Shown: positions 24,727-48,193 of the stretch, in pieces | How the letters are laid out: each line of letters opens with the position of its first letter | Position numbering within the stretch: position 1 is the first letter of the stretch | Assembly (NCBI GenBank): GCA_001567245.1 | Contig: LMZU01000016.1 | Coordinates: 467-64,466, forward strand | DNA from: Microgenomates bacterium OLB23 | GTDB lineage: Bacteria > Patescibacteriota > Microgenomatia > UBA1406 > HO2-37-13b | Direction: 5' to 3' | Length of the DNA: 64,000 nt | Position numbers and translations under genes: made by a program | Notes under the pieces: model-generated | The model's input: only the letters and a program-made list of their open reading frames with translations | What the model was told of the DNA's origin: nothing | Databases searched by the model: none

Positions 24727-24749
24727 TTAAACAACCCCCTATTTTTCTC

Positions 24750-24779
24750 TTGACAAACATCTTTTAAAAACCGTACAAT
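24750..24779 (+). promoter_or_regulatory. Promoter TTGACA-18-TACAAT, 7 nt upstream of ATG 24787
   Basis: Perfect -35 at 24750-24755. -10 at 24774-24779. The track start at 24778 lies inside the -10, so ATG 24787 is preferred. Confidence 0.6.
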
Positions 24780-24786
24780 GGTTTTC

Positions 24787-25332: not shown

Positions 25333-25358
25333 GCCAACGGCAAACATACAGAATAAAC

Positions 25359-27651: not shown

Positions 27652-28437
27652 AACACCTACTACTTGTATCGAGCATACTCATCGTCGCATTCGGCATATT
27701 GCTAGGATTTATTTTTTTTGCAGGCAGATACACCTATTGCATTGCTTTCTGAAGCCAGCAACACTAATAGTGCAGCCTATTATTGCCCTGTAGATATTAC
27801 CCTATACGTACACGAGCAAGATACATTAGGTCAGCAAGTTCCACTTTCGCTAGAGAGCTACCCAGAGCTTGATTTAATGCAATGGAGCATTACTACAAAT
27901 AATGCACAGTCTGCTCCCCTATATTTTAATGAGCTTCCACTTATGCAATATTCTGCAAAAAATACTTTTTTGTCACTTGTAACAGACCCAAAACAGGCAG
28001 ATATGTTTGCTAAAAAAGATGTTGCTGCATTACAGCTTAACTATCAATCTGATCTTTTTCGCGTTGTAAAGCAAGAGGTAGTTACCTGCGCATCTGCAAC
28101 ACAACAAAACCTGTGCAACACACAAACAGAAGATGAAAGTAACAATCAGCAACAGCTTACTACGCTCTCCGCTACAATGGATTGCGGTATGAAGCTTGTG
28201 GCTGGCTGGGTTGTAGAGAAAGTTGCAACAAACACATCACCATCATCAGCCACTACGGCTACCACTATTGTTCAATGTGATCTTAATAGCGACGGGGCCT
28301 GCAATACATTTGATCTGTTTGTAATATTAGACACATATGGGAGCAAAGGTTCGGGGCTTAATGGAGACCTAAACAATGATCAAGCTGTTAATGCACTCGA
28401 CTACACCCTTATGACAAGTCGAATTTCTCTCTTGTAA
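27648..28437 (+). CDS. Signal-anchored protein with C-terminal dockerin (frameshift in TM region)
   Basis: ATG 27648 (ATGA overlap) joins ORF 27718..28437 if the T8 run 27712-27719 loses 1 base, giving MKHLLLVSSILIVAFGILLGFIFLQADTP. C-terminus: DLNSDGACNTFDLFVILDTYG...DLNNDQAVNALDYTLMTSRI. Confidence 0.6.
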
Positions 28438-28460
28438 TATATACGCTTCTTATCTAGAAT
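28432..28460 (+). promoter_or_regulatory. Promoter TTGTAA-17-TAGAAT, 6 nt upstream of ATG 28467
   Basis: Hexamers read directly. Confidence 0.45.
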
Positions 28461-28466
28461 GATCTT

Positions 28467-30141
28467 ATGTACGTGGTAAAAACTGCGATTATATCTGTTG
28501 CTGTAGCTTTGTGTGCAACTTTTATTATGATCGGTGTGGCTTATGGACAGTCTAAACCCGAAATTACCTACATCAAAAATTCTGACATTGGGTTTACCAT
28601 ATCTGATCTTACCCCTTCTCGTCAGTGGGACTATATTGCAAGCACTAACTTTTGCTTTAGCTTTAACCCACCCACCGCAAATGGCAGTGCGGCAGTTCAG
28701 GTTACTATGGAGCTTAAAGACAAAGCAAACCCGTCTTCTACAGTAGAGGAGGTCATTGGGGCATCTGTTAATCAGCTCATTACTAATCCTTCTACTGTGC
28801 GTTGTGGCTCTAGCACGCTCCGCAGGCTTACAGCACAAGCGCCTTTCAACATACCACCCCAGGAACGATGGGTTGAGGCATGCCCACGCATAAAGGTAAA
28901 AGTAGTCACAAAAGGGCCATGGCGACCATTTCCGCAAGAAGATGTAGCATATATAGAAAGAAGTTTTCTATGCCCAGACGGCATAGTTACCACAGCGCCT
29001 ACCGCAGCACCAACCACCCCTCCTTCTACCCCTTCTCGCATTCCATTTAGGCCCCGACCCACTACAATACCGCCTACGAGCACTCCAACACCAAATGTAA
29101 ATGCTATTGAAGGGCGTATTACTGTGTTTTCTTGTGCACAACCAGAAACTGTAACGCTAAGCTACTGTGATGATCCTTCTGGAGCAAGCTGCGCTGATCT
29201 TAACCTAGCCACCACACCACAAGATCAGGCAATTTGGCTTGATGATGAAACAAATGAGCGCACATTTATATATAAGTACCGTATTACAAAAGATAAGTCG
29301 GGTAATGCGCTTGATCCGTCTAAAACATATTCTGTGTTTAATGCAAATGCCCGCATCAAGCGTTTTTAAAGATACTAATATAGAGTCATTTGCATCATTA
29401 AAAGAAGATAAAAAAGAAGTTCGCGTACCTGGTAGTCGTGATTTGAGCATATATGCCGCCGCACAAACCTGCGCGTGTGTATTTCATGCACGTGCCCATG
29501 TGCGCGATGCAGATACCGGAGAAATAACCACAGCACTAGATGAGCAGCTAGTGCCAGGGAAAGATCTTACTTTTGGTAGTGCCAACGATATGCAAATTGC
29601 CACCAGAGGAGATAAACCCGTAAGCCCTTTTACTAATGGTGTGCTCGATGTGCTCGAAAGCCTTCATGATATTAACTATAGTAATGAGGTAGGGCCTTGG
29701 ACTCCCTATGGTACCGATGGCACTGCCCACGTGCGCCTATATGCTCCCGGATACACCATTGTAAAGCAGCGCTGCCAAACAACAGCAGCCAGTCAGGTGC
29801 ATGCATGCCCCGATGGTAAATTAGAAGAAGAGCTTACCCCCCGAGATGACCGTAACTTTTTTGGCTTTAGAGTTGCCTGTGGCGTAGACGTTTCGTATGA
29901 CTGGTATATTAGAAAGAACCCTATCGCAAATGCAGAAGGATTTAATGTAACTAAACCCGAAGATGTAGACATAAATAACGATGGCTTTATTAATACAGCA
30001 GACCTGGTTACATGTATTGACGAATGGGGCAAAAAGTCTGGTGCACTTGTGTGTGATATTAATAAAGACAAGTCTGTAGATGCTCTTGACCTTTCTTTGG
30101 TTACCAGTTTACAAGGCATAGACATTAATGAAGCTCAGTAA
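28467..30141 (+). CDS. Signal-anchored modular surface protein with C-terminal dockerin (frameshifted)
   Basis: ORFs 28467..29369 and 29239..30141 join (..NARIKRFKDTNIESF..) if the T5 run 29363-29367 loses 1 base. TM helix IISVAVALCATFIMIGVAY. Dockerin: DINNDGFINTADLVTCIDEWG...DINKDKSVDALDLSLVTSLQG. Confidence 0.6.
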
Positions 30142-33100
30142 CTTTAATAGCCGGGGCTCTGTGGTAGGAATGCTTGTAGCTGGTGTGAGCGTTGTTGCGC
30201 TTGTCGCAACAGTTATTGGGGTAATGCAAAATAGTGTACAACGAAGCTCAGATGCCGCGCTCAACTCAACCGGCGTTATGCTGCAAGAAGGCACGCTTGA
30301 TGTTGAGCGCATCGATGACAACCACGTCGAAATAAGTGGACAAATTTGTTACTCGCGCCACTTGCAAAGTGGCGGCAAAGAAGAATGGACACTCTGGGCA
30401 ACAGACAACCGCGGCAAAGCATTAGAAGGAGAAAACGATGGTAGCCATATAGATGGCGGTCGACTTTTTGTAGCCGGCAACGGTAGTTTCCCTGCTTCGT
30501 GTGAGTATGTCGACCGGGCTGCAGGCATTGGCGCCATGCGTGATAAAAACCAAAAGCAACCACATCGGTTTTCTATAATTGCAACTACTTCACGCCGCAT
30601 TACCGACAGTTACTGCCCAGAAGTATTTCTCAATTATCGTGGCACATGGTTTTCTGGCACACCATTTGCAAAAATTAACCTCAAAGATTATGCAAACATA
30701 TGTACCCCATCATCTGGCTCAACTCCTTCTACTAGTCCAAACCCTGGCTCTGCTACCGAAGAACCACCAGCACCAACCGAACCTGTTGTAACTCCCACAA
30801 ACTCGCCCACCCCAACCCCAGACTTTACCGTAAGTGGACGGGTATCAGTATATGGATGTAAAAAACCTGATAGAGCAACTGTTGAATACTGCGAAGGAGA
30901 AACCTGTAATGAACTCAATGGCGGAAAAGTAACATCCACTCCATTTACCTCTGGACCTTCTGAAAACGGCATTTGGCTTGAAGATGGCAATGATGATAAT
31001 ACATGGATTTTTAATTATCGTATTAGTGTTGATCATGATGGCAAGCCACTTGACCCGTCAAAAACATATTTTATAACTCGCGCACTCGGATTTTTCGATG
31101 GCGAGCAGCTTTTTATTGACTCAGAACGTGAGCAAGGAGAAAAACTCCGCATGAAGCCTGGCACACAAAGAGATCTTAAAGTATATGCAAACCGTACCTG
31201 TGGCTGCTCATTTGATGCCGTTGCATATATAAAAGATACAAATGGCAACCTTATAACCGAGCTCGACAACAAGCAAGACCAATTCGGCACAAAAAATAAC
31301 AAGCAAATTTTTGATCGTGGCGATAGCCCAACCGGATCAGTTATATTCAATAACCTTGGCAGCAACCCGGGTCGTGTTGATTTTCATCTTACCGATCTTG
31401 GAGACTTTAGAGATGCCCATACATGGGGGCGTGATGCGTTGGCGGCGGTTAAACTCTACGCAGATGGCTGGAACGTAGTAAAACAAGAGTGCACAAGTAA
31501 AAACCCAAGCGTTCCCGCATGCCCTGGCTATACTCAGTCATGGAACGCCACCGACATGACCAAACTACGCAATCCAAAGGTATTTGAAAATATGCGTGTT
31601 GGGTGCAATGTAAATGTAGAATATGGCTGGATTATAGAGAAGGCTCCAGAACCTACACAGGCCCCAGAACAACCACCTATTGGGGGTGCTCCTATTGGTT
31701 CTATATCGTGCGCTTTACGTGATGATGCAAATCCGGCTGCGCCACAAAACCAAGGTTGCCGACCTCAAAACTTCCGCATTAAACAAATAAAAGAAGGCAC
31801 TGCAAACCTTGTCTGGGATGTTGCTGCAAGTTGTCCTTCGTTCCGCGAAGGCAGCGACCGCTATTGGATTATTGTAAAAAAAGAAGGGTACAGAACAAAT
31901 TGTAGCTTCACGCCGTGGCATGAAAGACGAAGATACTGGTGTTGGAGCAGATGATCATGATAAGGGCGTACCTCCCCACCAAATTGTAGTGCAGCCAGAG
32001 TTTGTTACCGATGATGATGGTGACAAAGAATATTATTTTATGGAAGGTCAAGAATATACCGCCTATCTTTATAGCTACCTCGATAAAGACAATAGTTGTA
32101 TGAGCCTGCCAATTTCTCTCGACTTTACGGGTGTTGCGCGTGATGACTCAGAGGATCCAGAAGAACCTGGAGATCCGGGTGATCCAGGTAGCGGTGGAGT
32201 GTGTCCTCAGTGGTGCGCAACCGTAGATTACTGTCGAAGTCAAGGCTGGGTAGACAAAAACCCACCTGCTGGTGAGCATTGTAGTGGCGCAGACGAAAAG
32301 TGGTGCTGCCCACCAGGCACAGAGCCACCAGGTGGCGAAGGCCCAGGCGGTGGTAATCCTGGTAATCCAGGTGGCGGTAACCCAGGACAACCTGGTAACC
32401 CAGGCGGCGGCACCGGCGGTGCGTGCCCAGCAGGGTCACTAGGCGTACCAGGAAGCAGCGGTGAGTCTTTTATAAAAACCAGTACTGCAAGTGATGCGGG
32501 AGTCTGCTCTACTACATATCCCGGCTCAAAACCAGTCGACGCATCTGATGGTGGCTTTTGTTGTACAAGTGGTAGTAGTGGTGGCATTGGCGGTGAGCCT
32601 GATAACCCCTATCAATGCAACTCAAATGATTATGGGCCAATCGCTGCAGCCGCAAATTACTGTGTTCCTCAAAATGGTTTTCAAGCTTATACCCACCCAA
32701 TCAAAGCTGATGGAACAAAATCTACAAGCCAGCATTGTTGCGTAGTTCATGCAGGAATCGGGTCATGCCCAGCCACAGAAGGACTCAGAGGAATTCCCAA
32801 TAAAAATCCGAGTCGTGGCATTCCTCAGGGCAAGGGCTATGCACAAGAACAGTGCAAAAGTGAATACGGCAGCAACTTCTCAAGTGTAGAACCTGCCCGG
32901 GGTCGCACATTACAAACCGGATGGTGTTGTAAGGTAACGAACAACTTTGGTACTTGCGACAATAACAAAGGAGAATTTGGACAGAATGGAAGGTCTCCTG
33001 CCTTTACTAGCAAATCAGCTGCGCAAAAGCAGTGCTCAGATATGGGTAATCCTAAATGTAGAGCAGCGCAATCACGAACAGGAACTGGTTGGTGTAGCGT

Positions 33101-34001
33101 CACAAGCGCACTACCAACCCCCACTGCAATAGTATTACAATGCCCCGCTGGATTTACTCAACACAAGAACGAGGGTCGGGTATGTCCACTTAATCAGACA
33201 GCATACATTGCAAGAGGCTTCCCCGCTGATCAACTTTGTTGCAAAAACGAACTCCTTCAGAGCTGTACAGGTAACTATTTTGGTGTCAATAAAGGTAATA
33301 ATCCAATCAGATTGCCAGGAAAACCTGGAGACGCCACACTATCGCAAAAATGTAAACTGGACAATGGTACTGGTAACTACCTTTTTGAAACAACTTCTTC
33401 AGATACAAAATTGTGTTGCGAGAAAAAACCTGTTGAAACCCCAAAGCCCAATGCTCCCAAGTACACAGTTACTATTAAATACAATATTACCGTACCAGGA
33501 GCCATAGACTTTACCCTCACCCCAAAACTCGCTGGGCCAATTCCTATACTACGTACCGGCAAGGAATTTTCTAAATCTGTATTCCACTTCGGTAGAACGT
33601 ATGAGCACACGGTCGAATACACAAATATAGAGAAGAATAACTATACAGTTCAATGTTCAATGAGAATTGCGGGTAACACTGGAAAGCCCTGTAATAACGC
33701 AGTAATAGACGTATCGAGGAATGTATGTTATGAATACAATATTACTGTCGAAGGCACTACCATGACGCAATCTGCACTTGGCAAAGAATGTAGCACAGGC
33801 TCGGGTGGCTCTGGCGGTGGCGGATTTTTGAGCGCTGAGCTTGACATGAACGGCGACGGGGTTATTAACACCATCGATCTTCAATACATATACGATGAAT
33901 ATGGCGCCGAAGGCGCAACTACTACAGATGTAAATGATGATGGCGCAGTAAATGCACTTGACCTCTCCATTTTCATGAACTCATTTGGTACCGAGCTCTA
34001 A
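30128..34001 (+). CDS. ~1290-aa signal-anchored modular surface protein: shared modules + GNP-rich linker + 7 Cys-repeats + dockerin (frameshifted)
   Basis: ORFs 30128..31954 and 31920..34001 join (..YWIIVKKKGTEQIVASRRGMKDED..) if the A7 run 31876-31882 loses 1 base. N-terminus RGSVVGMLVAGVSVVALVATVIGV. Dockerin: DMNGDGVINTIDLQYIYDEYG...DVNDDGAVNALDLSIFMNSFG. Confidence 0.6.
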
Positions 34002-34031
34002 TTGACAAACAATTCAACACCTCTCTATAAT
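34002..34031 (+). promoter_or_regulatory. Consensus promoter TTGACA-18-TATAAT, 6 nt upstream of ATG 34038
   Basis: Perfect hexamers at 34002-34007 and 34026-34031, starting 1 nt after the upstream stop. Confidence 0.6.
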
Positions 34032-34037
34032 GAATAC

Positions 34038-34641
34038 ATGGACACCATTGCCACTGTTGTGCGTAAAGATGTAAAAGAATTTCTTACCCTCAGCCCACAG
34101 GTTAAATTCTTACTTACCATACAGCTCATTATTTTATTTATTTTAAGCATACTCATTGGCATTATCTTTTCACCTAAGTTTAAGCACAACGTCATGCGAC
34201 AAAAACGTTGTGAGCAACGAAACCACAGACACCACAAAAGAAAGCGTGAGACTTTCGCTTTTGCCACAAAGTAAGCTTATGAAGCCAGGCGAAGAGGTTA
34301 CATTCTACGTCACAATGAGCGGAGACCCTGCCTATGCACTAGATACGCACATAACATATGATCCCGAATACGTAGCAATACGCAATGTACAAAATGGTGA
34401 CATGTTTGACAGGGTTATTCTTAATGAAATTAAAACGAATACTATAGTATTTTCTGCCGCATACGACCCCGGCAAAACCACCTTTAAGCAAGAAGGTATT
34501 GCATTTACCTTTACCGCAAAAGCACTCAAAAAAACCCAAGAAACCCTTTTACTCTTTGACCTTAAAAACACTATTGCAGCACAAGATGGCACAAACATAT
34601 TAAAAAATGCCGAGCCGGCTACCATACATATTTTTGATTAA
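34038..34641 (+). CDS. TM-anchored cohesin-domain protein (frameshifted)
   Basis: ORFs 34002..34274 and 34156..34641 join (..SILIGIIFHLSLSTT..) if the T4 run 34167-34170 loses 1 base. Core: GEEVTFYVTMSGDPAYALDTHITYDPEYVAIRNVQNGDMF...GIAFTFTAKALKKTQETLLLFD. Confidence 0.65.
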
Positions 34642-34644
34642 ACC

Positions 34645-36764
34645 ATGAAGACACTTGCACTTGCGGTTTTAGCCATTATGTCTATTGGTCTTTTAGTAGG
34701 CTCACGGTTTGTAACTAACCCCAACCTAAACGAACGCAGAACGCAAGCCAATGTACCCGATGCCCTCACTGTAGTACAAAATCAAGACGTATCGGTTGAG
34801 TTTACCAGCCTTGCTCCCCATAATCGCTGGGACTACATGCTCACCGGCGGGCTTTGTTTTACAAACAACCCCCCCCACTAATGGCAAATGGAAGGTAAGC
34901 GTATACCACGACGGGCTCATTAACCCAGAAATTGCCATAGGTGCAAGCGTACAAAGAACTGTCACCAACCCATCACAGGCTCGCTGCCGAGATGGCTCAC
35001 CCATGCTCATTTTTAATGCGCCCATTAACATGCCGCCTGCAAACAGGCTACATGAAAACGAAGACTGCCTACCTGCCGGTGATGTAGATGTGCGTGTTGA
35101 TACAGCTGGCCCACCCTGGCAAATAGAATCAGATATAGCCACAATTGCTCGTGATTACTTTTGTCCCGATGACCCAGCGCCTACTGACAATCCAAATCAA
35201 TCGCCTACCCCAGCTCCTAATGGTGATGTAAATGTAAACCTTCAGCTAGAAGGAACATGGAATAGCAATTTTAATGAGTTTCAGGCCACAGCCAGAATGT
35301 GTGATTTTGACGAAAGTGGCGATGTTGACTGGGAAAGTTGTGGCGAGGGCAGTAACAAATCGTCAAGTACCGACATTACACGTAAGAGTACAGGAACAAG
35401 CATTAACAAAACAGTTACATTAAACATTGCCGATACCCAGGGCGGCCCAAAGGCACTGGTAATAATTTATGACTACAAACGCACCGATGGCAAAATTGAT
35501 AACACCGGCATACAGGTTGAGGTTGTCAATAACACCGAATGCGGCCCTTCAGAAGTAGATTTTGGCGCGTATGTATGCGGCGTAGATGCCGGCGGCGCTC
35601 CACTTAATACCTCTTTTAAGCTTGTACTCCCCACTCACAATGCAACAGCATATGAACTGAGACTAGGCAGAGAGGTTAATGAATTTCGCGAGATCATAGA
35701 GCCCTGCACACATGCCATTGATACTAATAATAAAAATGGAACTGCTGCTCAAGGTGAGCGAGGACAATGTAGCTCATATGCAGAAGGCAATACCATTAAG
35801 GTAGCCTTTCACAATAGAGAATCTACCGAGCAAAAAATATACTGGCTTCTAGGCAGATGTAACGGAACCTTTGACGATAACGAAGGATATTGTGAAACTA
35901 ACGCTCCAGTAGAAACCACAAACCTCGTGCAAAATATTTTTGATGCAGAACAAACACTTACCCTTCCTGCGGGGCAGGTTGCCGTATGTACATTTGATAA
36001 ATCAAAATACCCAACTACAGAAAACGAGGCAAATGTGCGTAGCTCTGGAGCTGTTTCGTGTGTTACTGCAGCACCAACTGCAACACCTGTTCACACCTTA
36101 ACCCCATCACCAACAGCAACTTCTACACCAACACCAACACCGGTGCGTGCAACTACCCCTAACCCCGGCACAGGCACGCCTGTTCCCGATGCAGATGCTG
36201 GTTACTACACAAGCATTTTCGTTTTATAATGGCTCGTCACGCGCGGTTACCAGCATTACCACACTCACCTGCTACGGCGCCTCCAAGTCTGATTGTGTAT
36301 CTGAGTTGGTAAATACGTCTATTCAACCACGACAAAGGGGTACTGTAGAAACAGATCTTGTGCTACCTCGAGGCGTAAATGATTATGTGGTTAAGTGTCG
36401 TGTAACATTTGCTGGCAGTTCAACTCCAGTAAACTGCCCCAATGAGGTAGCAACACCACTGCGACAAAACGTGCTTTATCGTATTTCAGCTTCAGATGGG
36501 GGCATAACAGGACAAGGAGTTACAGAGATTGATGCATGTGATGTAAACAACGATGCGTGCTGTAACGCAAATGATTTTTCTGTTGTTGCAACTAAATATG
36601 CCGAAGAAATTAACCCAACTGAACAAAATGCATCGGACATAAATGGTGATGGCATTATTAATGGTTTTGACCTCGTATTCACGCAGGCCAACTTTGGAAA
36701 AGGTCAAGGGTGTAGACTTAATCTTGCTCCAGAATTGAACCCTGAATTGCGTCGGGAACCGTAG
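34645..36764 (+). CDS. Signal-anchored modular surface protein with C-terminal dockerin (2 frameshifts)
   Basis: ORFs 34645..34881, 34796..36229 and 36147..36764 join at the C8 run 34869-34876 (..CFTNNPPTNGKWKV..) and at a T4 run near 36216-36222. Dockerin: DVNNDACCNANDFSVVATKYA...DINGDGIINGFDLVFTQANFG. Confidence 0.6.
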
Positions 36765-37137: not shown

Positions 37138-37143
37138 GTGAGC

Positions 37144-37851
37144 ATGTTTGCACCATTTATACAGTATTTATTGCAGAGCGGCGTATCGGAGTATGCATTG
37201 ATTGTGCTCCTTTTTTTGCCTATGGTTACCGCGCTCATTACATTCGCGCGCTATGTTATTGGTATCCGCACCATTAACATATATACCACTGTATTGCTTG
37301 CCTATGCCCTGCTCGATTTGGGCTACACGCCTAAAGGCAACATAGATTATGCAGCCACCATTATATATGGAGGTCTTATTATGTTTGCCATTTCTTCAAT
37401 TGGACTATGGATTCATCAGATACTATATGCCTCTCGCCTTCATTACCTTGCAAAAGTTAGTATTGTGTCTTCTTTTGCAGTTATGGGTGTTTTCACACTC
37501 CTATATGGGGCGACATTGGTTAATCAGGTTGATTTGAACATGATCAACCCTATTACCATACTTCTTTTTATTGTCGCGCTAGAGTCGTTGGTAAAAAGCT
37601 CTGTGCGCCATGGCATAAAAAAGGCTGTGTACTTAATGACCCATACTATTGTGCTTGCAATTGGTATTTTCTTTATCATGAGTCAAGAAATTATGCAAAA
37701 TGCCGTATTTGATTACCCCGAAATCTCACTGCTTATGATTGTGCTCAGCTTTATTGCTGGAAAGTGGCGCGGTCTTAAATTACTAGAGTTTATTCGCTTT
37801 AGAAACATTCTTAAACAAGACGTACATGATTCTGAAGATTTTGGCGAATAA
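37144..37851 (+). CDS. 7-TM membrane protein of the type associated with ATP-grasp ligases (7TM_transglut-like, lacking the transglutaminase domain)
   Basis: Polytopic protein. The N-terminal pattern ALIVLLFLPMVTALITFARYVIGIRTINIYTTVLLAYALLDLG resembles the 7TM module found beside alpha-L-glutamate-ligase-like genes. Assignment is from recollection plus gene context. Confidence 0.5.
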   Translation: MFAPFIQYLLQSGVSEYALIVLLFLPMVTALITFARYVIGIRTINIYTTVLLAYALLDLGYTPKGNIDYAATIIYGGLIMFAISSIGLWIHQILYASRLHYLAKVSIVSSFAVMGVFTLLYGATLVNQVDLNMINPITILLFIVALESLVKSSVRHGIKKAVYLMTHTIVLAIGIFFIMSQEIMQNAVFDYPEISLLMIVLSFIAGKWRGLKLLEFIRFRNILKQDVHDSEDFGE

Positions 37852-37856
37852 GTCGC

Positions 37857-39263
37857 GTGTTTTTGGGTTTGAATGAACGCAATATATCGTACGTCAAAAA
37901 GTACAATCTTCCCTCTGCTCGAAAAGCTGCAGATAACAAAATTCTCACAAAAAATACTCAAAGAGGTTGAAGTGCCAACCACATTAGTGCTGCATGTTAT
38001 TAAAAATGTTGATCAATTAGCAAGTCTTGACGTTAATACACTGCCAAAAACATTTGTTGTAAAGCCAGGTAGTGGTGTCGCGGGGCAAGGCATTGAGATT
38101 ATATACAACCGCGACAAACAAGGTAATTTTATTAATGCGCAAGGTCATAAAATTTCTCCAGAGGCATTAAAAAATCTTATGGCCAACATTTTAGAGGGTG
38201 CATTCTCTCTAAACTATAGTCCAGATAAGGTGCTTATAGAAGAAAGAGTAAAACCACACCACAAACTGCGCCCCTTTAGCTACAAAGGTGTGCCAGACAT
38301 TCGCGTCATTGTGTTTAAAAAAGTGCCTGTTATGGCAATGGTGCGCTGGCCCACCAAAGATTCGGCGGGGCGCGCAAACTTTTCGCAAGGTGCCGCAGGC
38401 AGTGGAATAGACTTAGCCACCGGCATTACCACCCACACTATAAAACAAACTAGCGAGGGGCGCATTGTTGATCTTGAATTTGTTGATGGTACGCGTACGC
38501 GCTATTCGGGTTTTAAAGTGCCCTATTGGGATAAAATCCTAACATATGCGGTCAAAGCCGCTAAAGCTACCAACCTTGGTTTTTGTGGAGTTGACTTTCT
38601 TATAGATCGTGAACGCGGCCCGTTAATTGTAGAAATCAATGCCCGACCTGGATTACGCATACAACTGGCCAATCAAGATGGCCTTAAATGGAGGCTCGAA
38701 CAAATAAAGAGAGTTCGCATTAAAACTGTTTCGCATGGTATTCGCCTTGGTAAAGACTTGTTTGGCGGTGAAGTTGAAGAAGAAATTGAGGCAATCGCAG
38801 GTAAAAAGATAATTGGTCTTATTCAGCCAGTTAAACTGTATCATAAAACAGAAAAGCGCAGCATAACTATTATGGCAAAAGTTGATACTGGTGCAACCTA
38901 CTCCTCTATTGACCGACAAATTGCAATTGATCTTGGCTATGGCGAAGCCGTTGCTCAATTTGAAAAACTCAATATACCTAAACAAATTCTTACACGCGAA
39001 GAAGGCATTGCCATTGCAGAAAAATATCATACTCAGCTCACAGAAAACAACCAAGATATTATCAACACTGAAGTTATCGTCAATAGTAACGGAAGAAGTT
39101 ACCGTATTATTCTTGGGCTTCGTGCAAAAATGCAAGAAAAAGAAATTTCTTGCACACGCAACAGTTACAGACCGCAGTAACTTGGTATACCCTATGATTA
39201 TAGGCAAAAAAAGATCTTAAAGAATTTTTAGTAGATCCAAGTAAAAAACCTGCAACAGCATGA
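37857..39263 (+). CDS. ATP-grasp (alpha-L-glutamate ligase-like) fused to a C-terminal retropepsin-like (RimB/PF05618-type) aspartic peptidase domain (3 frameshifts)
   Basis: GTG 37857 gives FLGLNERNISYVKKYNLPSARKAADNKILTK, joined at the A6 run 37949-37954. ATP-grasp motifs: FVVKPGSGVAGQGIEII, VLIEERV, CGVDFLIDRERGPLIVEINARPG. Peptidase motif: AKVDTGATYSSI. The tail TVTDRSNLVYPMIIGKKDLKEFLVDPSKK is restored by removing 1 base from A5 39137-39141 and from A7 39206-39212. The stop overlaps the next ATG. Confidence 0.7.
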
Positions 39264-40084
39264 GTAAAAATATAGCTATATTTGCTTCGGTAGTTAACGA
39301 AAAAACTAGAGCATCCTTTCCCCGAGGGTTATTTTCATATAACGATGTTGCTATTATTATTGATCAAAAAAGCAAAAACCCTATAAAAATCTTGGTTGGC
39401 ACAAAAGAAATATCTACCTTTGACCTTGTATACTTTAGAACCTGGAGAAAATATGCTCTTATTGCCTTCCCTATGGCTCGCTATCTCAAAATGAAAGGTG
39501 TAAAAATTATTGATACAGAAATTCTTAAAAGTCAGGTTGATTCTAAAACATATGAATATATCTGCGCAGCTGAACACAATGTACCAATTCCACGTTCAAT
39601 TATTGCCTGCAAAGTGAAGCTAGTCACCATGAAGAAAACAATTCACGATACCTTTACGCTGTATCCGCTCATTGTCAAAGCGGCCGAAGGCAAACAGGGT
39701 CGAGATAACTTTTTAGTAAAAAACTTTACAGAACTTAAGAAGGTGCTGAGTAACTACCCTAACGACAAATTGTTTATTGTGCAAGAATATATTCCAAATA
39801 ACTTTGATTACCGCTTTCTTGTAACAGGGTACAAAACTGCTTTGGTTTATAAACGTATTCGCACCAATGAGATATCACATTTAAATAACATTTCACAAGG
39901 TGGGTTACGTGAAATTGTAGATGCGAACAAGCTTAAAAGCCTATGTAAGATTGCTGAGAAAATTAGTAAAGCACTTTATCGTGAAGTTTGTGGCGTTGAC
40001 ATTATTATCAGCACAAAAACAGGTGAGCCCTATGTATTAGAAGCAAACTCAGGACCACAACTCAACTTTAAGCCCGCAACTTAA
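39260..40084 (+). CDS. RimK-family ATP-grasp ligase
   Basis: LIVKAAEGKQGRDNFLV, LFIVQEYIPNNFDYRFLVTGYK, CGVDIIISTKTGEPYVLEANSGPQ are typical RimK-like ATP-grasp blocks. Confidence 0.7.
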   Translation: MSKNIAIFASVVNEKTRASFPRGLFSYNDVAIIIDQKSKNPIKILVGTKEISTFDLVYFRTWRKYALIAFPMARYLKMKGVKIIDTEILKSQVDSKTYEYICAAEHNVPIPRSIIACKVKLVTMKKTIHDTFTLYPLIVKAAEGKQGRDNFLVKNFTELKKVLSNYPNDKLFIVQEYIPNNFDYRFLVTGYKTALVYKRIRTNEISHLNNISQGGLREIVDANKLKSLCKIAEKISKALYREVCGVDIIISTKTGEPYVLEANSGPQLNFKPAT

Positions 40085-40111
40085 GGCAGTTAAGAGTTAC
40101 TTAGCAAGGGT

Positions 40112-40993
40112 ATGAAAAGAGTACTCCTACTTTCTTCCGAACCACCTGTTAAGCCAAAAGTTATGTATTTGCTCTCAAGAAATCGTGAAGAGATAGGGTT
40201 ACAATCGCATGCGACCACATATACACATCTTGCAATAGCTCTTGATGCAGAAAACAAATCATCTGAAATATTCGTTGACGACAGGCCTTTTGATATGAGT
40301 GGCGTGTACTTTCGTGCATGGGCAAACTATGCTGCCATGTCGAGTGCGCTAGCTGTCTTACTTAAAAACAAGAAAGTTCCTTTCACAAACTCAGATGTGG
40401 GCACATCTGGATCAGACAGTAAATCATACGATTACTGCAAGCTCTTTAACCATATACGACTTCCCCATACTATCATTGCTTACCCAGAGTGGCTTATTAT
40501 TAATGCCGCTATGCTTGAGAATAGATTTCAGTATCCATATATCCTAAAGGCTTCTGATGGGAGGCAAGGTTATGACAACTATCTTATAAAGTGTAAGGCT
40601 GAACTTACAAAAAGTCTCAAAGGATATAAGAAGAATGCCCTATTCATTGTTCAGGAGTTCATCCCAAATTCTTTTGACTATCGCATTATTATTGTTGGTG
40701 GTAAAGCCATGCAAGCATACACAAGGACGAGAGATCCGAAATCTTCATCTCATGTAAATAATGCTTCACAAGGTGCTTCAAAAACTGTGGTTAATCTTAC
40801 AGATATTCCAAAGCTATGTAGGCTTGCAGAGAAAGCTGCAAAAACACTGAAACGAGAGATTTGTGGCGTAGATATAATAGTAAGTTCAGAAAGTAAAAAA
40901 GCCTACCTTGTTGAGGTTAATTCTTCGCCCAGTCTTCCCTATGACACTACAGTCAGACTAATCCAGTCGTACTTAACATCGACTCTAAAATAA
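40112..40993 (+). CDS. RimK-family ATP-grasp ligase (paralog)
   Basis: YILKASDGRQGYDNYLI, LFIVQEFIPNSFDYRIIIVGGK, CGVDIIVSSESKKAYLVEVNSSPS. Confidence 0.7.
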   Translation: MKRVLLLSSEPPVKPKVMYLLSRNREEIGLQSHATTYTHLAIALDAENKSSEIFVDDRPFDMSGVYFRAWANYAAMSSALAVLLKNKKVPFTNSDVGTSGSDSKSYDYCKLFNHIRLPHTIIAYPEWLIINAAMLENRFQYPYILKASDGRQGYDNYLIKCKAELTKSLKGYKKNALFIVQEFIPNSFDYRIIIVGGKAMQAYTRTRDPKSSSHVNNASQGASKTVVNLTDIPKLCRLAEKAAKTLKREICGVDIIVSSESKKAYLVEVNSSPSLPYDTTVRLIQSYLTSTLK

Positions 40994-42380: not shown

Positions 42381-42461
42381 GCCGGGGTGGCGAAATGGTA
42401 GACGCGCACGCTTCAGAAGCGTGTGTCGCAAGACATGGAGGTTCGAGTCCTCTCTCCGGCA
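42381..42461 (+). tRNA. tRNA-Leu (anticodon CAG), class II with long variable arm
   Basis: Acceptor GCCGGGG/CTCCGGC (one G-U pair). Anticodon stem CACGC/GCGTG with loop TTCAGAA. T-loop GGTTCGAGTCC. Discriminator A. CCA is not encoded. Confidence 0.9.
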
Positions 42462-42507
42462 CAACCTCGGGGGGTGATTTAGCGCACCCCCTCGGACTAA
42501 ATAAGAT

Positions 42508-42819: not shown

Positions 42820-43755
42820 ATGTTTAATATGCCCGAGCCCACGCTGGAATCACTGAAAAAACACATTGGCGTACTTGCACTGCAAGCAGGATTCCTTGTA
42901 CTCCTTGCGCTCAGCTATGGCGGCTTTGCACTCAATACCTATGTAAAAGAAGCCTCAATACCCTCTCACATTACCTCTCCCCTTGCTTACGAACAACAAA
43001 CAGCACAAACATCAGAGGCTGTTTTAGGAGAAGACACCGCAGAAACCCCTGTAGAAGAACCTCTAGAAGAATCCGAAACTATGCCAGAACCCACTATGTA
43101 CCCACAACCTCCACGTAAGGAGTATGCAATCGCCATCTATGGCGACTCCATGGTCGATACCATGGGTGAACGACTAGAGTATCTTGAACATGCTCTCTTA
43201 GAGCGTTACCCAGAAACAACATTTCGCCTATATAACTACGGCGTAGGTTCACAAAATATTCATAATGGTCTTGAACGTTGGAATAAACCATTGCGCTACC
43301 AAGATCGCGACTTTCCGGCAATTACCGAACTCAGACCAGACATTATTATCGTCGGCTCATTTGCCTACAATGTGCTAGTGCCGCACGATCGCAATGCACA
43401 CTGGCTTGGCTATACTGAGCTTGTACAGCGGGCACAGCGCCTTACGCCACACGTGTATATGCTTGCAGAAATTGCACCAATGCGACGTGGTTTTGGCTTT
43501 GGGCCAAACGGGGTAAATTGGGAGCCGTCAACTGCGTGGAGCCATACAGAAAAAATTATTGAACAGCTAGAAAATGTACTGGGTCTTGCACGAACGTTGC
43601 AAGTGCCGCTTATTGATGCATACTCACCATCACTTCAAGATGGTGTAAAAGAAGGCAAACGCGAACTTGTGAATCCTAGTGATAATATTCACCCTTCAGT
43701 AGAGGGGCACAAGTTCATCGCGAAAACGATTGTAGATGCTTTGAAGTTTAGATAG
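42820..43755 (+). CDS. Membrane-anchored SGNH/GDSL-family hydrolase
   Basis: Block I IAIYGDSMVD (GDS) and block V DNIHPSVEGH (DxxH). N-terminal TM helix. -10 TATACT (42808-42813) lies 6 nt upstream of the ATG. Confidence 0.7.
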   Translation: MFNMPEPTLESLKKHIGVLALQAGFLVLLALSYGGFALNTYVKEASIPSHITSPLAYEQQTAQTSEAVLGEDTAETPVEEPLEESETMPEPTMYPQPPRKEYAIAIYGDSMVDTMGERLEYLEHALLERYPETTFRLYNYGVGSQNIHNGLERWNKPLRYQDRDFPAITELRPDIIIVGSFAYNVLVPHDRNAHWLGYTELVQRAQRLTPHVYMLAEIAPMRRGFGFGPNGVNWEPSTAWSHTEKIIEQLENVLGLARTLQVPLIDAYSPSLQDGVKEGKRELVNPSDNIHPSVEGHKFIAKTIVDALKFR

Positions 43756-43767
43756 AAGAGGCAGATT

Positions 43768-45012
43768 CTACTTACGTTGAGTATATTTATCAATAGGTAC
43801 CGCATATCCAATACCCTCAATATATGAAGGATTATACCCATATTGGACAGCTGTCCCTCTAATACCAAGCATTACATTTGCAACATCACCTGGATAGCTT
43901 ATTTGAGTTTTGAATGTACCCGAGGAAGAATAATGAATACCCACAAGTTCTCCCTCTGCATTTACTAAGCCAGAGCCACTTCTTCCTGCAAATGAGAATG
44001 GAATATCCTCTCTCCCGTTATCGATGACACTTCCAAATGCATACAGCATATTACCCACACTATCGTATCCAATGACTCTACCCCTTATGGGTTTAATTTC
44101 GTAGCTCCCTTTTCTATTAAGTGTATAGCCTGCATATCCAAGACCAAAAATAGGGTCTCCAATATCAGGTTGGTTATTTGCAATGGGCACAATTCCAAAT
44201 CCTCCACCAAGTTCTTCAACACTATAGCCCATCATAGCGATGTCATTTTTTTTACTTACCCATTCCGGTTCTGCACTAAAAAAACTGATGCCATTTTTTC
44301 CAATCTTTGCATATGGGTGTCCAAGTTCATGAGAATAGGTACCAACTGGAGCAGCCACATGGCGATTTGTTAATACTTTTCCTGGGCCAATGCTAACACC
44401 AGAACCATAACCTTTGTATTCATGCTGTGCCTCGCCTGATTCTGCAAAACCTGTTTCTTCCCACACTCTTACCATCATTGTTGCATCACGAAGTCTGTTC
44501 CAATATTCAGGAGCAAGATCTTCTGTAATTGGTTCTGGAATTCGATAATCATTACATCCTATGTCTGGAAAATTTAATGGTGATGTTGTGCATGATGTGC
44601 CAGTGCGGTCAACATTCTTTATTGGATTCCCTTGCACATATCCGTACCTATTCGGCCCCTCTACCTTATCTGCCTGGATAAACGCACCCAACTGTGGGCT
44701 ATAGAAACGTGCTGCTGCATGATAGATGCCTGTATCTTCAAGCTTTCTGTGTCCTGTAAACTGTCTATCGTAGAGGTTTTCTACATCTTCCACGTCTGTG
44801 CCATATGGGTAGTATGCTCCCTCTCTTGTTGAACCCAAATAGTCTTTTGTGATCAGCGTTTCTTTATCATCTTCTTTCAATATCATTGTTTGGTTTGAAG
44901 TCGGGATATATAATCGCGAGGTAGTTTCTGTCGCATGGGCCATGTTACATATGCCTCCAAGTTGGAGAAATACATAGCCGCATATTAGTATGGTGAAAAA
45001 TTTAATGCGCAT
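43768..45012 (-). CDS. Secreted 'RHS core-end' protein with C-terminal trypsin-like (S1-type) serine peptidase domain
   Basis: Signal peptide. YIPTSNQ...YYPYG...DRQFTGHRKLEDTGIYHAAARFYSPQLGAFIQADKVEGPNRYGYVQGNPIKNVDRTGTSC. Then an ordered H/D/S triad: VLTNRHVAAP, KKNDIAMMGY, AGRSGSGLVN. Confidence 0.6.
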   Translation of the reverse strand: MRIKFFTILICGYVFLQLGGICNMAHATETTSRLYIPTSNQTMILKEDDKETLITKDYLGSTREGAYYPYGTDVEDVENLYDRQFTGHRKLEDTGIYHAAARFYSPQLGAFIQADKVEGPNRYGYVQGNPIKNVDRTGTSCTTSPLNFPDIGCNDYRIPEPITEDLAPEYWNRLRDATMMVRVWEETGFAESGEAQHEYKGYGSGVSIGPGKVLTNRHVAAPVGTYSHELGHPYAKIGKNGISFFSAEPEWVSKKNDIAMMGYSVEELGGGFGIVPIANNQPDIGDPIFGLGYAGYTLNRKGSYEIKPIRGRVIGYDSVGNMLYAFGSVIDNGREDIPFSFAGRSGSGLVNAEGELVGIHYSSSGTFKTQISYPGDVANVMLGIRGTAVQYGYNPSYIEGIGYAVPIDKYTQRK

Positions 45013-46258
45013 AAGCTTCGTTACCCATAAATCCTCTCATAATAGCGCTCTCTAAATCGTGAATAGGTTTTTGTACAACTGGATTTGTTCTAAAATGATT
45101 TGTTGCCCCAAAATGCGTACCTGCATTCGTAAGCACACCCTGCAGTTGAGGAACCGACCTGTTAAGTCCTTTTTTCACAAATGAACCTCCAAGCTTTCCT
45201 CCACCATAGCGACCTAACAATGAAACCTTGAGACCAGCCTTTGTCGCCAGATAGTTTGTAGTAAGCGCAGAACCGAGCGTTACCCCATCCATTTTTTGCA
45301 TGTCATGAACAGTGCCATATGCAATAAGTGGAGAAACAATCACCGACTCGGCCGCAAGTTCGTACGTAAGGTGACCTGCTTTTGAACCAGCCATCGCACG
45401 CACAAACGAGGGACTTTTTTCTAGAAAGCGCGCGTATTGTGGGTTCATAAACCCACGCGCACTACTTATCCACTTTCCACCTACTGCGCCTACAACACCT
45501 TGGGTAACAAGCTTTTCCGCATCAAAATCGCCTTGTAAACCTTGTGCAACCGCTTCAATACCGACGCTTCCTACTGCTCCCTGAACTGCCGAATACTGGA
45601 GCGCACTCCCAGCTGCACCAGAAATGGATGATGCAACTCCCGAGCCAGCTATAACAGGTGCTGCATAAATGCCCCCAGCTACAACCACTCCTGCTGCTGT
45701 GCCACCGACTATTGGGTAATAAATTCTATCGGGGATACCCTGGTCTGGGGGCATTTCATATATATCCATGCCTCTGAACTCGGGCTTTAGCGTGTACATG
45801 GTGTAGTAGTCGCTTAGGTCAATATATTGTGGTTCTTTTGGTAGCTCACATTGTGTAACGCATGTGCCTGTTGGGTCGGTATAAGTTACGGGGTTATTAA
45901 CTGCATAGATATAGCGATGGGGGCTTTCTACACGATCAGCGTGTAAAAACTGCCCTAGCTGTGGGTTATAAAATCTTGCACCCGCGTGGTAAACACCAGC
46001 ATCACCAAGACTACGATGGCCGGTAAATTGACGGTCGGTTGAAGTTTGTGTATTCTCAACATCTTCACCGTATGGATAAAAGCTCTTTTCTCGTACAGAA
46101 CCCAAGTAATCGTTCACAGCTATTGAACTCTTATCACCCTCCTTTATTATCATTGTCTGACTCGAAGTAGGAATGTAAACACGAGAATTTACTGAAGCAA
46201 AAGAGGATTTCGGAAAGACCAAAATGAAGAAAATAACACTCAAAAGCCTCTTCTTCAT
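45002..46258 (-). CDS. Secreted 'RHS core-end' protein with Gly-zipper region and unknown C-terminal domain
   Basis: Start at the ATG 46258 (MKKRLLSVIFFILVF). ...DRQFTGHRSLGDAGVYHAGARFYNPQLGQFLHADRVESPHRYIYAVNNPVTYTDPTGTC. Then GGTAAGVVVAGGIYAAPVIAGSGVASSISGAAGS. Confidence 0.55.
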   Translation of the reverse strand: MKKRLLSVIFFILVFPKSSFASVNSRVYIPTSSQTMIIKEGDKSSIAVNDYLGSVREKSFYPYGEDVENTQTSTDRQFTGHRSLGDAGVYHAGARFYNPQLGQFLHADRVESPHRYIYAVNNPVTYTDPTGTCVTQCELPKEPQYIDLSDYYTMYTLKPEFRGMDIYEMPPDQGIPDRIYYPIVGGTAAGVVVAGGIYAAPVIAGSGVASSISGAAGSALQYSAVQGAVGSVGIEAVAQGLQGDFDAEKLVTQGVVGAVGGKWISSARGFMNPQYARFLEKSPSFVRAMAGSKAGHLTYELAAESVIVSPLIAYGTVHDMQKMDGVTLGSALTTNYLATKAGLKVSLLGRYGGGKLGGSFVKKGLNRSVPQLQGVLTNAGTHFGATNHFRTNPVVQKPIHDLESAIMRGFMGNEAYAH

Positions 46259-46262
46259 ATAA

Positions 46263-47738
46263 TTAATTATTAGATGGTTGGATAACATGAACCCGATTTG
46301 CAGGTACAATACCCCGATACAACATTTCATTTGGAGTTTCTTTTAGTCTGTCAAAATTAGACCAAAGCCATGGACTTGTTTCACGATCAACATTACCAAA
46401 ACCAGCGCTTCGAGCAGCTAGCATAAAATATTTTTCTGCACTATCACCAAACAATCTTAAATCAAGCCCAACATCTGTAACTTCACCACGTTTAAACCAT
46501 GCACCAATAACTGTACCTTCTTGACCAGCATATGTATTACGAGCCAAATTGTAGTCTGGTGTCCAAGAGGAAAAATGTGAATCAGCTGAGTGTCCTAAGA
46601 ATGCATGTCTATAAGGTTCTGTTACTAAGTATGAAGCTCCGGGAATAAATTCGCTTGGATCTGATCTTTGTACCAAAGTTCCCATCCCGTATCCATTATC
46701 AGGGCCTGTATATAGTCCACCTGGGACCACATCACCTCCATCATATCCTGCTCTTAATCCCTTATAAAGGAACATCATATCGTTGAATTGATTTGATTCA
46801 TCAGGAATAAGGTGTCCTGGAGCAAATCTTGTATCAAGCTGCCTATATATTCCGCCTGCATTAAAAGTTGGCGGCAAATCTGCCCCTGTTGCTATCTGTG
46901 CGCCTGCTTCAACAGCATTCATACAGTTCGGGTTGGTCATACATGTACCTGTTGCTATCTGTGCTCCACCAACTAATCCAACAGCACTCGTTGCACCAAC
47001 ACCTGTACTTACCGCGCCAATTGCTGCAGGTGCTGCAACTGCACCCAAGTAACCGACACTTGCACCTGCTACTCCACCTGCTAATCCAGCACCCAAAACC
47101 CTTGCCGGCTCTTGTACAGAGCCGTATTGTGCAACTTGACTCCCCTTTTCATAGCCAGCTCCAAAGCCGGCGCCAAATGCCGCTCCACCTATAATAATAG
47201 CTGCCACTACAATAGGTACAATCTTTCCTGAAGGATCTGTATATACTGTAGGGTTTGCGGCTGCATACATATATCTATTCGGCCCTTGCACTTTATCTGC
47301 CGAAACAAAAATGCCGAGCTGTGGATTGTAAAACCGTGCGCCTGCATGGTACACGTCCGTATCTTCTAGGCTTCTATGACTGGTAAATTGTTTGTCTGTT
47401 ACTGTGTTTGGCTCACCACTAGTCATGCCATATGGATAATATTCCTGCGAGTCGTTTGCATTATTTGAGGCAACAACTCTAGTAGAGGTTATGTGATCTT
47501 GAATAAGTAAGTTTTCATCTGCATCACTAGTTTTCATGTAGGTCGAACTTGCTCCTGTGGGAATATAAAGTTTACTTACTCTTTTTCCGGCTTGTTGCGT
47601 GCGAGTTGGCTCGGGAACATCTGGTTGTTGTGCTCTAGAGACATTAATGCGTGCTAGCGGAATAAGAAAAAAATACGTCAGTGAGAAGACTGACGCAGTG
47701 AGAATTGCGACATGTTTAATTAGTGACTTCTTCTTCAT
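46263..47738 (-). CDS. Secreted 'RHS core-end' protein with Gly-zipper region and unknown C-terminal domain
   Basis: Signal peptide MKKKSLIKHVAILTASVF. ...DKQFTSHRSLEDTDVYHAGARFYNPQLGIFVSADKVQGPNRYMYAAANPTVYTDPSGK. Then IVVAAIIIGGAAFGAGFGAGY...GAGLAGGVAGASVGYLGAVAAPAAIGAV. Confidence 0.55.
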   Translation of the reverse strand: MKKKSLIKHVAILTASVFSLTYFFLIPLARINVSRAQQPDVPEPTRTQQAGKRVSKLYIPTGASSTYMKTSDADENLLIQDHITSTRVVASNNANDSQEYYPYGMTSGEPNTVTDKQFTSHRSLEDTDVYHAGARFYNPQLGIFVSADKVQGPNRYMYAAANPTVYTDPSGKIVPIVVAAIIIGGAAFGAGFGAGYEKGSQVAQYGSVQEPARVLGAGLAGGVAGASVGYLGAVAAPAAIGAVSTGVGATSAVGLVGGAQIATGTCMTNPNCMNAVEAGAQIATGADLPPTFNAGGIYRQLDTRFAPGHLIPDESNQFNDMMFLYKGLRAGYDGGDVVPGGLYTGPDNGYGMGTLVQRSDPSEFIPGASYLVTEPYRHAFLGHSADSHFSSWTPDYNLARNTYAGQEGTVIGAWFKRGEVTDVGLDLRLFGDSAEKYFMLAARSAGFGNVDRETSPWLWSNFDRLKETPNEMLYRGIVPANRVHVIQPSNN

Positions 47739-48177
47739 ATTGGCCGAAAAGATAAATTTGCTTCATTGGTATTTCTGCATTCGCCGACTCGTACTCTTCT
47801 TGAAGGTTCATTGCTCCCCCTTCATCGTAGTAGAATCTATACACTTTCTTAAAGTTATCGTCAGCACATGCCCCTTTTTTGTTTTTCTTAAGCCCCAAAA
47901 AGATTAACTCTCCCTCACGGTTATAGCGATAGCAATTGCTTTCGTCATTCTTCATGCCGCCCTCATTTGTATAGCTTATATCAAACGAACGTGTGGTAAC
48001 TCCCTCAACAACTCCGGTGGGAGTAACGCTTATTGGAGCAGTAGTTGGAGTTGTTAGTGGCTGCAGTTTTGTTGGTACTGGACTAACTGTTGTGCTTGGA
48101 ATAACTTCTGTAGGTTCTTCTCCGGTGACTTCTACTGTTTTCGGGGCAAAGAATGGATAGGCAGATGAATACTTCAT
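47716..48177 (-). CDS. Either a separate 153-aa protein or, more likely, the C-terminal tail of the YD-repeat giant protein
   Basis: ATG at 48177. However, removing 1 base from the T9 run 48197-48205 fuses it in frame to the upstream ORF (..GRMLKKNEKDSVAMKYSS..). Contains a Thr/Pro linker and YD-like YRYNREGELIFL / YRFYYDEGG. Confidence 0.35.
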   Translation of the reverse strand: MKYSSAYPFFAPKTVEVTGEEPTEVIPSTTVSPVPTKLQPLTTPTTAPISVTPTGVVEGVTTRSFDISYTNEGGMKNDESNCYRYNREGELIFLGLKKNKKGACADDNFKKVYRFYYDEGGAMNLQEEYESANAEIPMKQIYLFGQYEEEVTN

Positions 48178-48193
48178 AGCCACACTATCTTTT

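Follow-up and report, generated by a model that had tools for sequence, protein, structure and literature searches.

Why would a bacterium encode, one after the other, three secreted proteins that each carry the end of an RHS protein, and where is the remainder of that protein? The question is raised by a stretch of 64,000 nucleotides of Microgenomates bacterium OLB23 (contig LMZU01000016.1, positions 467 to 64,466), which we call the window. Three adjacent genes on its minus strand, hereafter the tips, encode a putative Sec-type signal peptide, the last YD hairpin and the core-end of an RHS protein, and a variable C-terminal domain. We found that the gene directly upstream, which an earlier reading of the sequence had overlooked, encodes an RHS shell without a core-end, i.e., without the plug that the tips carry. 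The same arrangement is widespread in the Candidate Phyla Radiation (CPR) and recurs in independent assemblies. It is almost certain that core-end and toxin are truly encoded by separate genes for secreted proteins, downstream of a shell that has no plug. Shell and tips would form a two-component split RHS, assembled in trans after Sec export, and we put the probability of this reading at about 0.6.

Three secreted tips behind a plug-less shell gene

The shell gene and the parts of the tips that bear on their export and their RHS character are the following.

47716-52778, minus strand: RHS shell gene without core-end, directly upstream of tip 1 and on the same strand
46263-47738, minus strand: tip 1, 491 residues
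47631-47738, minus strand: signal peptide of tip 1 (residues 1-36)
47223-47573, minus strand: hairpin and core-end of tip 1 (residues 56-172), ending DPSG/K
45002-46258, minus strand: tip 2, 418 residues, with its ATG at 46258
Residues 1-21 of tip 2: signal peptide
45863-46183, minus strand: hairpin and core-end of tip 2 (residues 26-132), ending DPTG/T
43768-45012, minus strand: tip 3, 414 residues
Residues 1-27 of tip 3: signal peptide
44596-44916, minus strand: hairpin and core-end of tip 3 (residues 33-139), ending DRTG/T

A preliminary description of the three genes had read the conserved region as a terminal YD repeat and an RHS core-end. This identification holds: behind the signal peptide comes the last YD hairpin and then the core-end, and the NCBIfam profile of the RHS repeat-associated core domain (TIGR03696) matched all three tips over about 115 residues (57.8, 60.8 and 62.6 bits for a cut-off of 32.5, E-values of 1e-15 to 4e-17). 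A conserved region foreign to RHS core-end models, which would have spoken against the identification, is therefore not what the tips contain. The domain scan gave no YD-repeat match in the tips themselves. A profile of the tip core-end aligned over its full length with proteins of solved structure (SGS4 2616-2735, SGS1, YenC2 605-689 and TccC3). The residues R135, D148 and D168, of the aspartyl autoprotease type, are invariant among ten tips and align with YenC2 and TccC3. The DPxG motif reads DP(S/T)G in tips 1 and 2 and DRTG in tip 3. At the DNA level the N-terminal domains of the tips are only 63-70% identical over their best common tract of 125 nt, and they share no long identical tract.

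The signal peptides described earlier were recognised by inspection in all three tips: a basic n-region leads into a hydrophobic h-region, and an AxA-type site follows. The putative cleavage sites are VSRA/QQ in tip 1, SFA/SV in tip 2 and AHA/TE in tip 3. The open reading frame (ORF) of tip 2 extends further, to 46330; we chose the start at 46258 (MKKRLL), which precedes the hydrophobic leader. Orthologues of tip 2 (P0002-P0004) are 46-67% identical to it. The genes are as tightly packed as had been reported, with a 4-nt gap between tips 1 and 2 and an 11-nt overlap between tips 2 and 3.

In the window the shell is split into three ORF pieces, at 49839-52778 (979 residues), 48194-49744 (516 residues) and 47716-48366 (216 residues). 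Its parts are, in order, an N-terminal signal or anchor, a dockerin-like module (residues 68-117), an N-terminal plug region, the YD repeats, a Pro/Thr-rich loop and the final hairpins, and it ends with ...KQIYLFGQYEEEVTN before the stop codon. The pieces match RHS_repeat (E-value 5.8e-15) and YD_repeat_2x. The dockerin match remains under the Pfam threshold (19.9 bits for 22.9). Dockerin and RHS_repeat were the only Pfam families found in the pieces; we found neither SpvB nor TcdB_mid in them, and no TcA-like gene at the locus. TIGR03696 matched none of the pieces of the window shell, and none of five orthologous or analogous shells (L001, L007, L021, L064 and L009), all of which match YD_repeat_2x. 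Comparison of the shell with RHS proteins in the PDB gave only a weak match to the Tse5 repeats, and the split point was mapped on a profile of single-chain proteins instead.

Two homopolymers mark the breaks between the pieces.

49854-49861, minus strand: A8 homopolymer (T8 on the plus strand), first frame break of the shell, seen in the three-frame translation
48197-48205, minus strand: A9 homopolymer, second frame break of the shell

The orthologous shell of locus L001 (OZ246401.1, a complete chromosome of 938 kb) is one unbroken ORF of 1680 residues with the same C-terminus (YD_repeat_2x, 43.8 bits for a cut-off of 15.8), and it reads through the A8 site as ...LEEKNAAGFKK... A tblastn search links the three pieces of the window at 78-80% identity. 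Many other genes of the window are frame-broken relative to L001, notably at 34-40 kb and 53-56 kb (e.g., an ATP-grasp gene in 5 frames, a DUF2207 gene in 4, and cohesin and dockerin genes). Since the breaks of the shell fall in homopolymers and so many other genes are broken, they are most likely assembly errors rather than decay, although the A8 and A9 tracts may be truly prone to slippage.

Shell and tips form a single operon-like array. The stop codon of the shell lies 23 nt past the ATG of tip 1, which is in the +1 frame relative to the shell. The 23-nt overlap is also found in L001, L002 and L003, whereas shell and tip overlap by 4 nt (ATGA) in L007 and are separated by 4 nt in L005. Independent assemblies thus keep the stop, the new start and the signal peptide with differing geometry, which shows that the split is no artefact of the error-prone window. 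Two candidate regulatory elements accompany the shell.

47674-47697, minus strand: hairpin resembling an intrinsic terminator, with a 9-bp stem, a 6-nt loop and U7
52810-52838, minus strand: sigma-70-like promoter candidate TTGACA-17-TAGTAT, about 30 nt upstream of the ATG of the shell

The terminator-like hairpin lies 20 nt after the stop of the shell, within the signal-peptide codons of tip 1 (-11.9 kcal/mol, z = -3.9). Between the window, L001, L002 and L003 the loop and the codons flanking the hairpin differ, but the stem is the same in all four, even at synonymous third positions; L005 has no such hairpin. It may be an attenuator that tunes the ratio of shell to tip expression. The promoter candidate is weak, as promoter-like sites are no commoner in the region than in shuffled sequence.

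Complementary ends across CPR lineages

Do shells and tips fit together? Eleven single-chain RHS proteins supplied the C-terminal regions for a profile of 197 positions, on which we then placed shells and tips. In the clade of the window, we obtained the end of the shell by aligning KQIYLFGQYEEEVTN by hand to KTLYVGGLYEVDKTS, a segment of an Anaerolinea RHS, and took the start of the tip from the profile. The results, in profile positions, are the following.

L073: shell ends at 30, tip starts at 33
L052: shell ends at 33, tip starts at 29-32
L009: shell ends at 53, tip starts at 54
L021: shell ends at 62, tip starts at 67
Clade of the window: shell ends at about 66, tip starts at 65
L036 and L064: shell ends at about 85, tip starts at 84-86

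Leaving the clade of the window aside, there are four different break points, yet in each lineage the tip supplies just what the shell lacks of a complete canonical RHS: tips that start earlier are paired with shells that stop earlier. Depending on the lineage, the tips contribute one to four hairpins and the plug. A fused homologue also exists: the mature N-terminal domain of the tip of L009 can be aligned over its whole length, with 44% identity, to residues 1457-1594 in the interior of a single-chain RHS of Shapirobacteria. Some shells (L009, L036, L051, L052 and L073) continue for 170-430 residues past the last hairpin, with Pro/Thr-rich linkers and Cys-rich domains. These extensions would lie beside the opening that we propose as the docking site of the tip.

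The succession of plug-less shell, stop, start, signal peptide, core-end and variable C-terminus was found in more than ten independent CPR assemblies, with one to three tips per locus. Besides the loci of the close clade (L001, L002, L003 and L005), it is present in a metagenome-assembled genome (MAG) of Saccharibacteria (L007), where a shell of 1673 residues ending in KQTFLFGSYEEVYEK at its stop codon is followed by a tip of 441 residues with a signal peptide. Roizmanbacteria and relatives have it in L018, L021, L029 and L032, with two or three tips in L018, L021 and L032. Further examples come from Woesebacteria (L051 and L052), Amesbacteria (L064, three tips), Gottesmanbacteria (L009 and L036) and L073. 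In L001 three tips follow the shell in the same order, and the genes for the GDSL hydrolase, Pth, endonuclease IV and ATP-grasp proteins come next, as in the window. Contigs from MAGs that bear a DPANN-type archaeal label (L031 and L043; Woesearchaeota or uncultured archaeon, labels as deposited) likewise encode tips with signal peptides.

A search of 1.84 billion representative proteins with the core-end profile gave 90,574 matches. We collected 165 proteins, made up of the 150 best representatives of these matches and of earlier matches. More than half of them (95) are short (median of 427 residues), with an N-terminus resembling a signal peptide directly before the core-end. Another 59 are short proteins lacking a signal peptide, which begin within a repeat as classical orphans or fragments do, and 11 are long single-chain RHS. 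Outside CPR the scan of genomes showed single-chain RHS of 1,900-3,000 residues, often followed by orphans without a signal peptide, e.g., in Chloroflexota, Nitrospirota, Omnitrophota, Streptomyces and Methanolapillus. The Methanolapillus loci (L079 and L084) are from genomes of cultured methanogens and encode canonical long RHS with orphan tips.

Four tips with signal peptides (L014, L016, L022 and L025) are solitary: they lie among housekeeping genes, with no adjacent shell. The three MAGs from which they come also hold a shell locus on another contig (L021, L018 and L029). A solitary tip in a genome with a distant shell locus is what a cartridge acting in trans would allow.

Payloads, immunity genes and neighbours

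What do the tips carry? They had been described as wholly different in their C-termini, and indeed share nothing after DP(S/T)G or DRTG. The regions behind the core-ends are these.

46944-47222, minus strand: Gly/Ala-rich hydrophobic helices of tip 1 (residues 173-265)
46869-46943, minus strand: conserved linker CxxNPxC...GADLPP of tip 1 (residues 266-290)
46266-46868, minus strand: variable C-terminal domain of tip 1 (residues 291-491), to which no fold was assigned
Tip 2, after the core-end: linker with MPPDQGIPDxIYYP, then a Gly-rich hydrophobic region (residues 183-265), then the C-terminal region
43936-44406, minus strand: Trypsin_2 domain (PF13365) of tip 3 (residues 203-359), 41.2 bits for a cut-off of 27.6

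The protease domain of tip 3 has a putative catalytic triad, read from the sequence as the His of TNRHV, the Asp of NDIAMM and the Ser of GRSGSG. A tip of L005 bears the same trypsin-like type of payload, whereas the tip at the position of tip 3 in L001 has a different domain. Payloads thus differ at orthologous positions in related genomes, which is evidence of cassette exchange in the course of evolution. Proteins of the tip 1 type (homologues P0012-P0020) keep the Gly-zipper module and the CxxNPxC...GADLPP linker, after which their domains are unrelated: none could be assigned in the window, P0016 has a nucleotidyltransferase (NTP_transf_2) and P0019 a kinase-like domain. As conservation reaches GADLPP, the boundary of variability in these proteins is about 120 residues past the RHS cleavage site, and not at it.

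The Gly/Ala-rich hydrophobic stretches right after the cleavage site hold 41 small-xxx-small motifs in tip 1 and 23 in tip 2. The payloads of these two tips had no match in Pfam, NCBIfam or PADLOC, and phmmer found none among PDB sequences. The Gly-rich domain of tip 2 may be membrane-active, judging by its composition and by an all-helical model of very low confidence. By eye, the C-terminal domain of tip 1 had been read as an ADP-ribosyltransferase of the R-S-E type. We dropped this reading because the residue at the "R" position varies among homologues and no model supports it.

No small ORFs were said to be interleaved with the tips, and we found none of at least 60 residues between them in the window, nor in L001-L003, L018, L021, L032 or L064. 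Immunity genes hidden by frameshifts, the reservation made at the time, did not turn up in the complete genome of L001, in which shell and tips are unbroken. Among 13 junctions between tips in 13 loci, 11 have a gap of at most 139 nt, and small ORFs were found in only one (L052).

The remaining genes and features around the locus are listed next.

42820-43755, plus strand: GDSL/SGNH hydrolase (Pfam Lipase_GDSL_2), hydrophobic near its N-terminus and in convergent orientation to tip 3
42381-42462: tRNA-Leu(CAG)
52974-53060: tRNA-Ser(GCU)
37138-40993: 7TM-transglutaminase-like gene, then three ATP-grasp genes (RimK/ATPgrasp_ST-type)
21146-21715, 24778-25332 and 34156-34641: cohesin-domain genes
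21715-24726 (with VWA domains), 27718-28437 and 31920-34001: dockerin proteins

The two tRNA genes flank a block of 10.5 kb made of the GDSL hydrolase, the RHS shell and the tips. The hydrolase is a conserved neighbour within the close clade, at the same position in L001 and L002. It is not beside the tips in L007, where a different ORF lies on the opposite strand downstream of the tip. The genes at 37138-40993 are syntenic with L001, beside endonuclease IV and Pth. Outside the clade, the nearest relatives of this endonuclease IV include proteins of Saccharibacteria and Nealsonbacteria MAGs (37-39% identity), alongside unclassified ones and others titled "Gammaproteobacteria". The cluster of cohesins and dockerins (21146-36764) looks like a cellulosome-like surface display in a genome-reduced bacterium, and the shell also begins with a dockerin-like module.

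Proposed assembly in trans, its rivals and known systems

How might such parts work? In the reading that we favour, all four proteins, the shell and the three tips, would be exported unfolded by Sec, and the shell may be tethered through its N-terminal dockerin to cohesin proteins at the cell surface. Outside the cell, the N-terminal beta-hairpin of a cartridge would complete the strand spiral of the shell; in L001 it would extend the sheet of the shell after ...IYLFGQYEEEVTN, with the core-end in the opening. The core-end would plug the cage and cleave after DPxG, with the payload remaining associated with the shell and probably inside it. Sec-dependent Rhs proteins are believed to acquire their fold only once they have been exported (PMC10327511), which makes it plausible that two exported halves fold together outside the cell. 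The producer would, in our proposal, need no immunity genes, as at no time would the toxins be folded in its cytoplasm. The three cartridges would compete for one shell, giving one type of cage with interchangeable payloads: a Gly-zipper module with an enzyme-like domain (tip 1), a Gly-rich domain (tip 2) and a trypsin-like protease (tip 3). The Gly/Ala-rich helices, which in tips 1 and 2 start right at the cleavage site, would be modules for insertion into membranes, and the payloads would be delivered into a foreign cell, that of a host. More tentatively, and at somewhat worse than even odds, we suggest that RHS encapsulation needs no covalent link, in that a plug-less shell tethered to the surface is loaded outside the cell by beta-strand complementation. 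Its cartridges would be interchangeable and some of them encoded elsewhere, the whole being possibly a reloadable cage of epibionts against their hosts, and the split would have arisen by repeated fission at different hairpins.

Several points weigh against assembly in trans. Known RHS and TcC proteins enclose their payload in cis, and the entry of a payload of about 250 residues into a shell in trans would be a departure from this. The terminator-like hairpin would lower the expression of the tips relative to the shell, which is not obviously suited to a 1:1 complex. The solitary tips could act alone. The shell of the window is itself frame-broken twice, probably by sequencing error, and signal peptides were called by eye and by a hydropathy rule only, both for the three tips and for the 95 related proteins. 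Structure prediction did not help: AlphaFold2 gave tip 1 (6 sequences) a predicted local distance difference test (pLDDT) score of 38, an unusable model for which Foldseek found nothing in the PDB at E ≤ 0.001, and tip 2 (4 sequences) an all-helical model of very low confidence (pLDDT of 31). These models confirm neither the fold of the N-terminal domain of the tips nor the folds of the payloads of tips 1 and 2.

The preliminary description offered three readings, namely a split RHS with its shell in trans, stand-alone toxins directed against a host instead of kin, and recombination cassettes. The split RHS is favoured by a shell that lies directly upstream, lacks the core-end in every lineage tested and has an end complementary to the tips; it would be compatible with toxins that act on a host and not on kin. 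The main rival is that the tips are stand-alone secreted pro-toxins, whose core-end is a self-cleaving pro-domain that releases the payload after export, and that the shell works independently or with tip 1 only. Such pro-toxins would account for the start and signal peptide of each tip, for the terminator-like hairpin between shell and tips, and for the tips without an adjacent shell (L014, L016, L022 and L025). However, a mere pro-domain needs no shell hairpins, whereas the number of hairpins in the tips exactly complements the end of the cognate shell. Every shell tested lacks a plug, and the solitary tips co-occur with a shell locus in the three MAGs of which several contigs were retrieved. 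We consider this explanation unlikely.

Recombination cassettes, i.e., classical displaced orphan rhs tips that are silent until they recombine into the main gene, fared poorly. They would form a tandem array directly after an rhs-type gene, as the tips do, and exchange has occurred over evolutionary time: the domain of tip 1 was swapped after GADLPP and that of tip 3 differs in L001. Yet the main gene has no core-end to replace, the common region of the tips has only 63-70% DNA identity and no long identical tract, the ATG starts and signal peptides are kept across phylum-level lineages, and there are no immunity genes. True orphans without signal peptides, such as those of the Chloroflexota loci, look different and start mid-repeat. 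The cassette explanation is highly improbable, and even less credit can be given to an artefact or a pseudogene, whether a single-chain RHS broken by sequencing errors or decay, or a shell fused to tip 1 by programmed frameshifting. The window is admittedly error-prone, with many genes, including the shell, frame-broken at homopolymers, and tip 1 does overlap the shell by 23 nt in the +1 frame. But a complete genome has the junction, as do more than ten independent assemblies, with varied geometry. In a fusion, moreover, a signal peptide that can be cleaved would end up in the interior of the shell, and tips 2 and 3 would be left unexplained. We looked for a frameshift signal at the overlap of shell and tip 1 and rejected it, as GAA GAA GAA GTC is no recognisable slippery site and the geometry varies by lineage.

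If the split RHS is real, a separately exported plug-plus-toxin can complete a cage in trans and outside the cell, with several cartridges per shell. The one to four hairpins and the core-end would then be a minimal docking module for engineering the loading of cargo, and the system would be a concrete candidate, open to testing, for the means by which genome-reduced CPR epibionts attack their hosts or manipulate them. It would also explain a large class of short metagenome proteins that are annotated only as "RHS repeat-associated core domain-containing protein".

Full-text searches of the literature found no description of an architecture with a split shell and core-end tips bearing signal peptides. 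A study of Saccharibacteria mentions a conventional RHS of 2487 residues with an immunity gene (PMC6031116). By its sequence features, the variant described here is distinct both from canonical RHS and from Tc toxins as they are defined: it is neither single-chain nor followed by immunity genes, and it has no N-terminal domains of TcB or TcC and no TcA partner. With the canonical Sec-dependent RHS of the WapA type (and also with RhsA and Tse5) it shares the YD shell, the TIGR03696 core-end with DPxG, the hypervariable C-terminus and, at the start of the shell protein, a Sec signal that is putative here. In canonical RHS these parts make up a single polypeptide with an immunity gene downstream, whereas here the shell and the core-end with its toxin are separate genes, each with a signal peptide, and one shell has several alternative core-end-toxin genes without immunity genes. 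The enterobacterial orphan rhs-CT/immunity modules likewise lie in tandem behind an rhs gene and consist of core-end fragments whose C-termini diverge. But they lack starts and export signals, their DNA is near-identical to that of the main core, and an immunity gene comes after each of them; none of this applies to the tips. The C-terminal toxin of Tse5 is a glycine-zipper protein that inserts into membranes, and the Gly/Ala-rich stretches after the cleavage site of tips 1 and 2 resemble glycine zippers; this is a resemblance only, with no detectable sequence similarity to solved structures and no confident model.

The closest functional likeness is to the Tc B/C cocoon (YenB/YenC2, TcdB2/TccC3), which is made of two polypeptides, as the split RHS would be, and which likewise has alternative C subunits that can pair with one B subunit, exists in fused and split forms and has no immunity genes. 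The C subunit, like the tips, ends in a core-end and a hypervariable toxin region. For the tips, a jointly formed cocoon is proposed from the complementary break points and the fused homologue. RHS and Tc cocoons are understood to fold round their own toxin in cis. TcC adds about 600 residues of shell and so encloses its own toxin, while the tips add one to four hairpins and the plug. We found no TcA, SpvB or TcdB_mid by Pfam or at the locus, every part of the CPR system has a putative Sec signal, and the organisms that encode it are CPR. Finally, the Tc split falls in the middle of the cocoon, whereas here it falls one to four hairpins before the plug.

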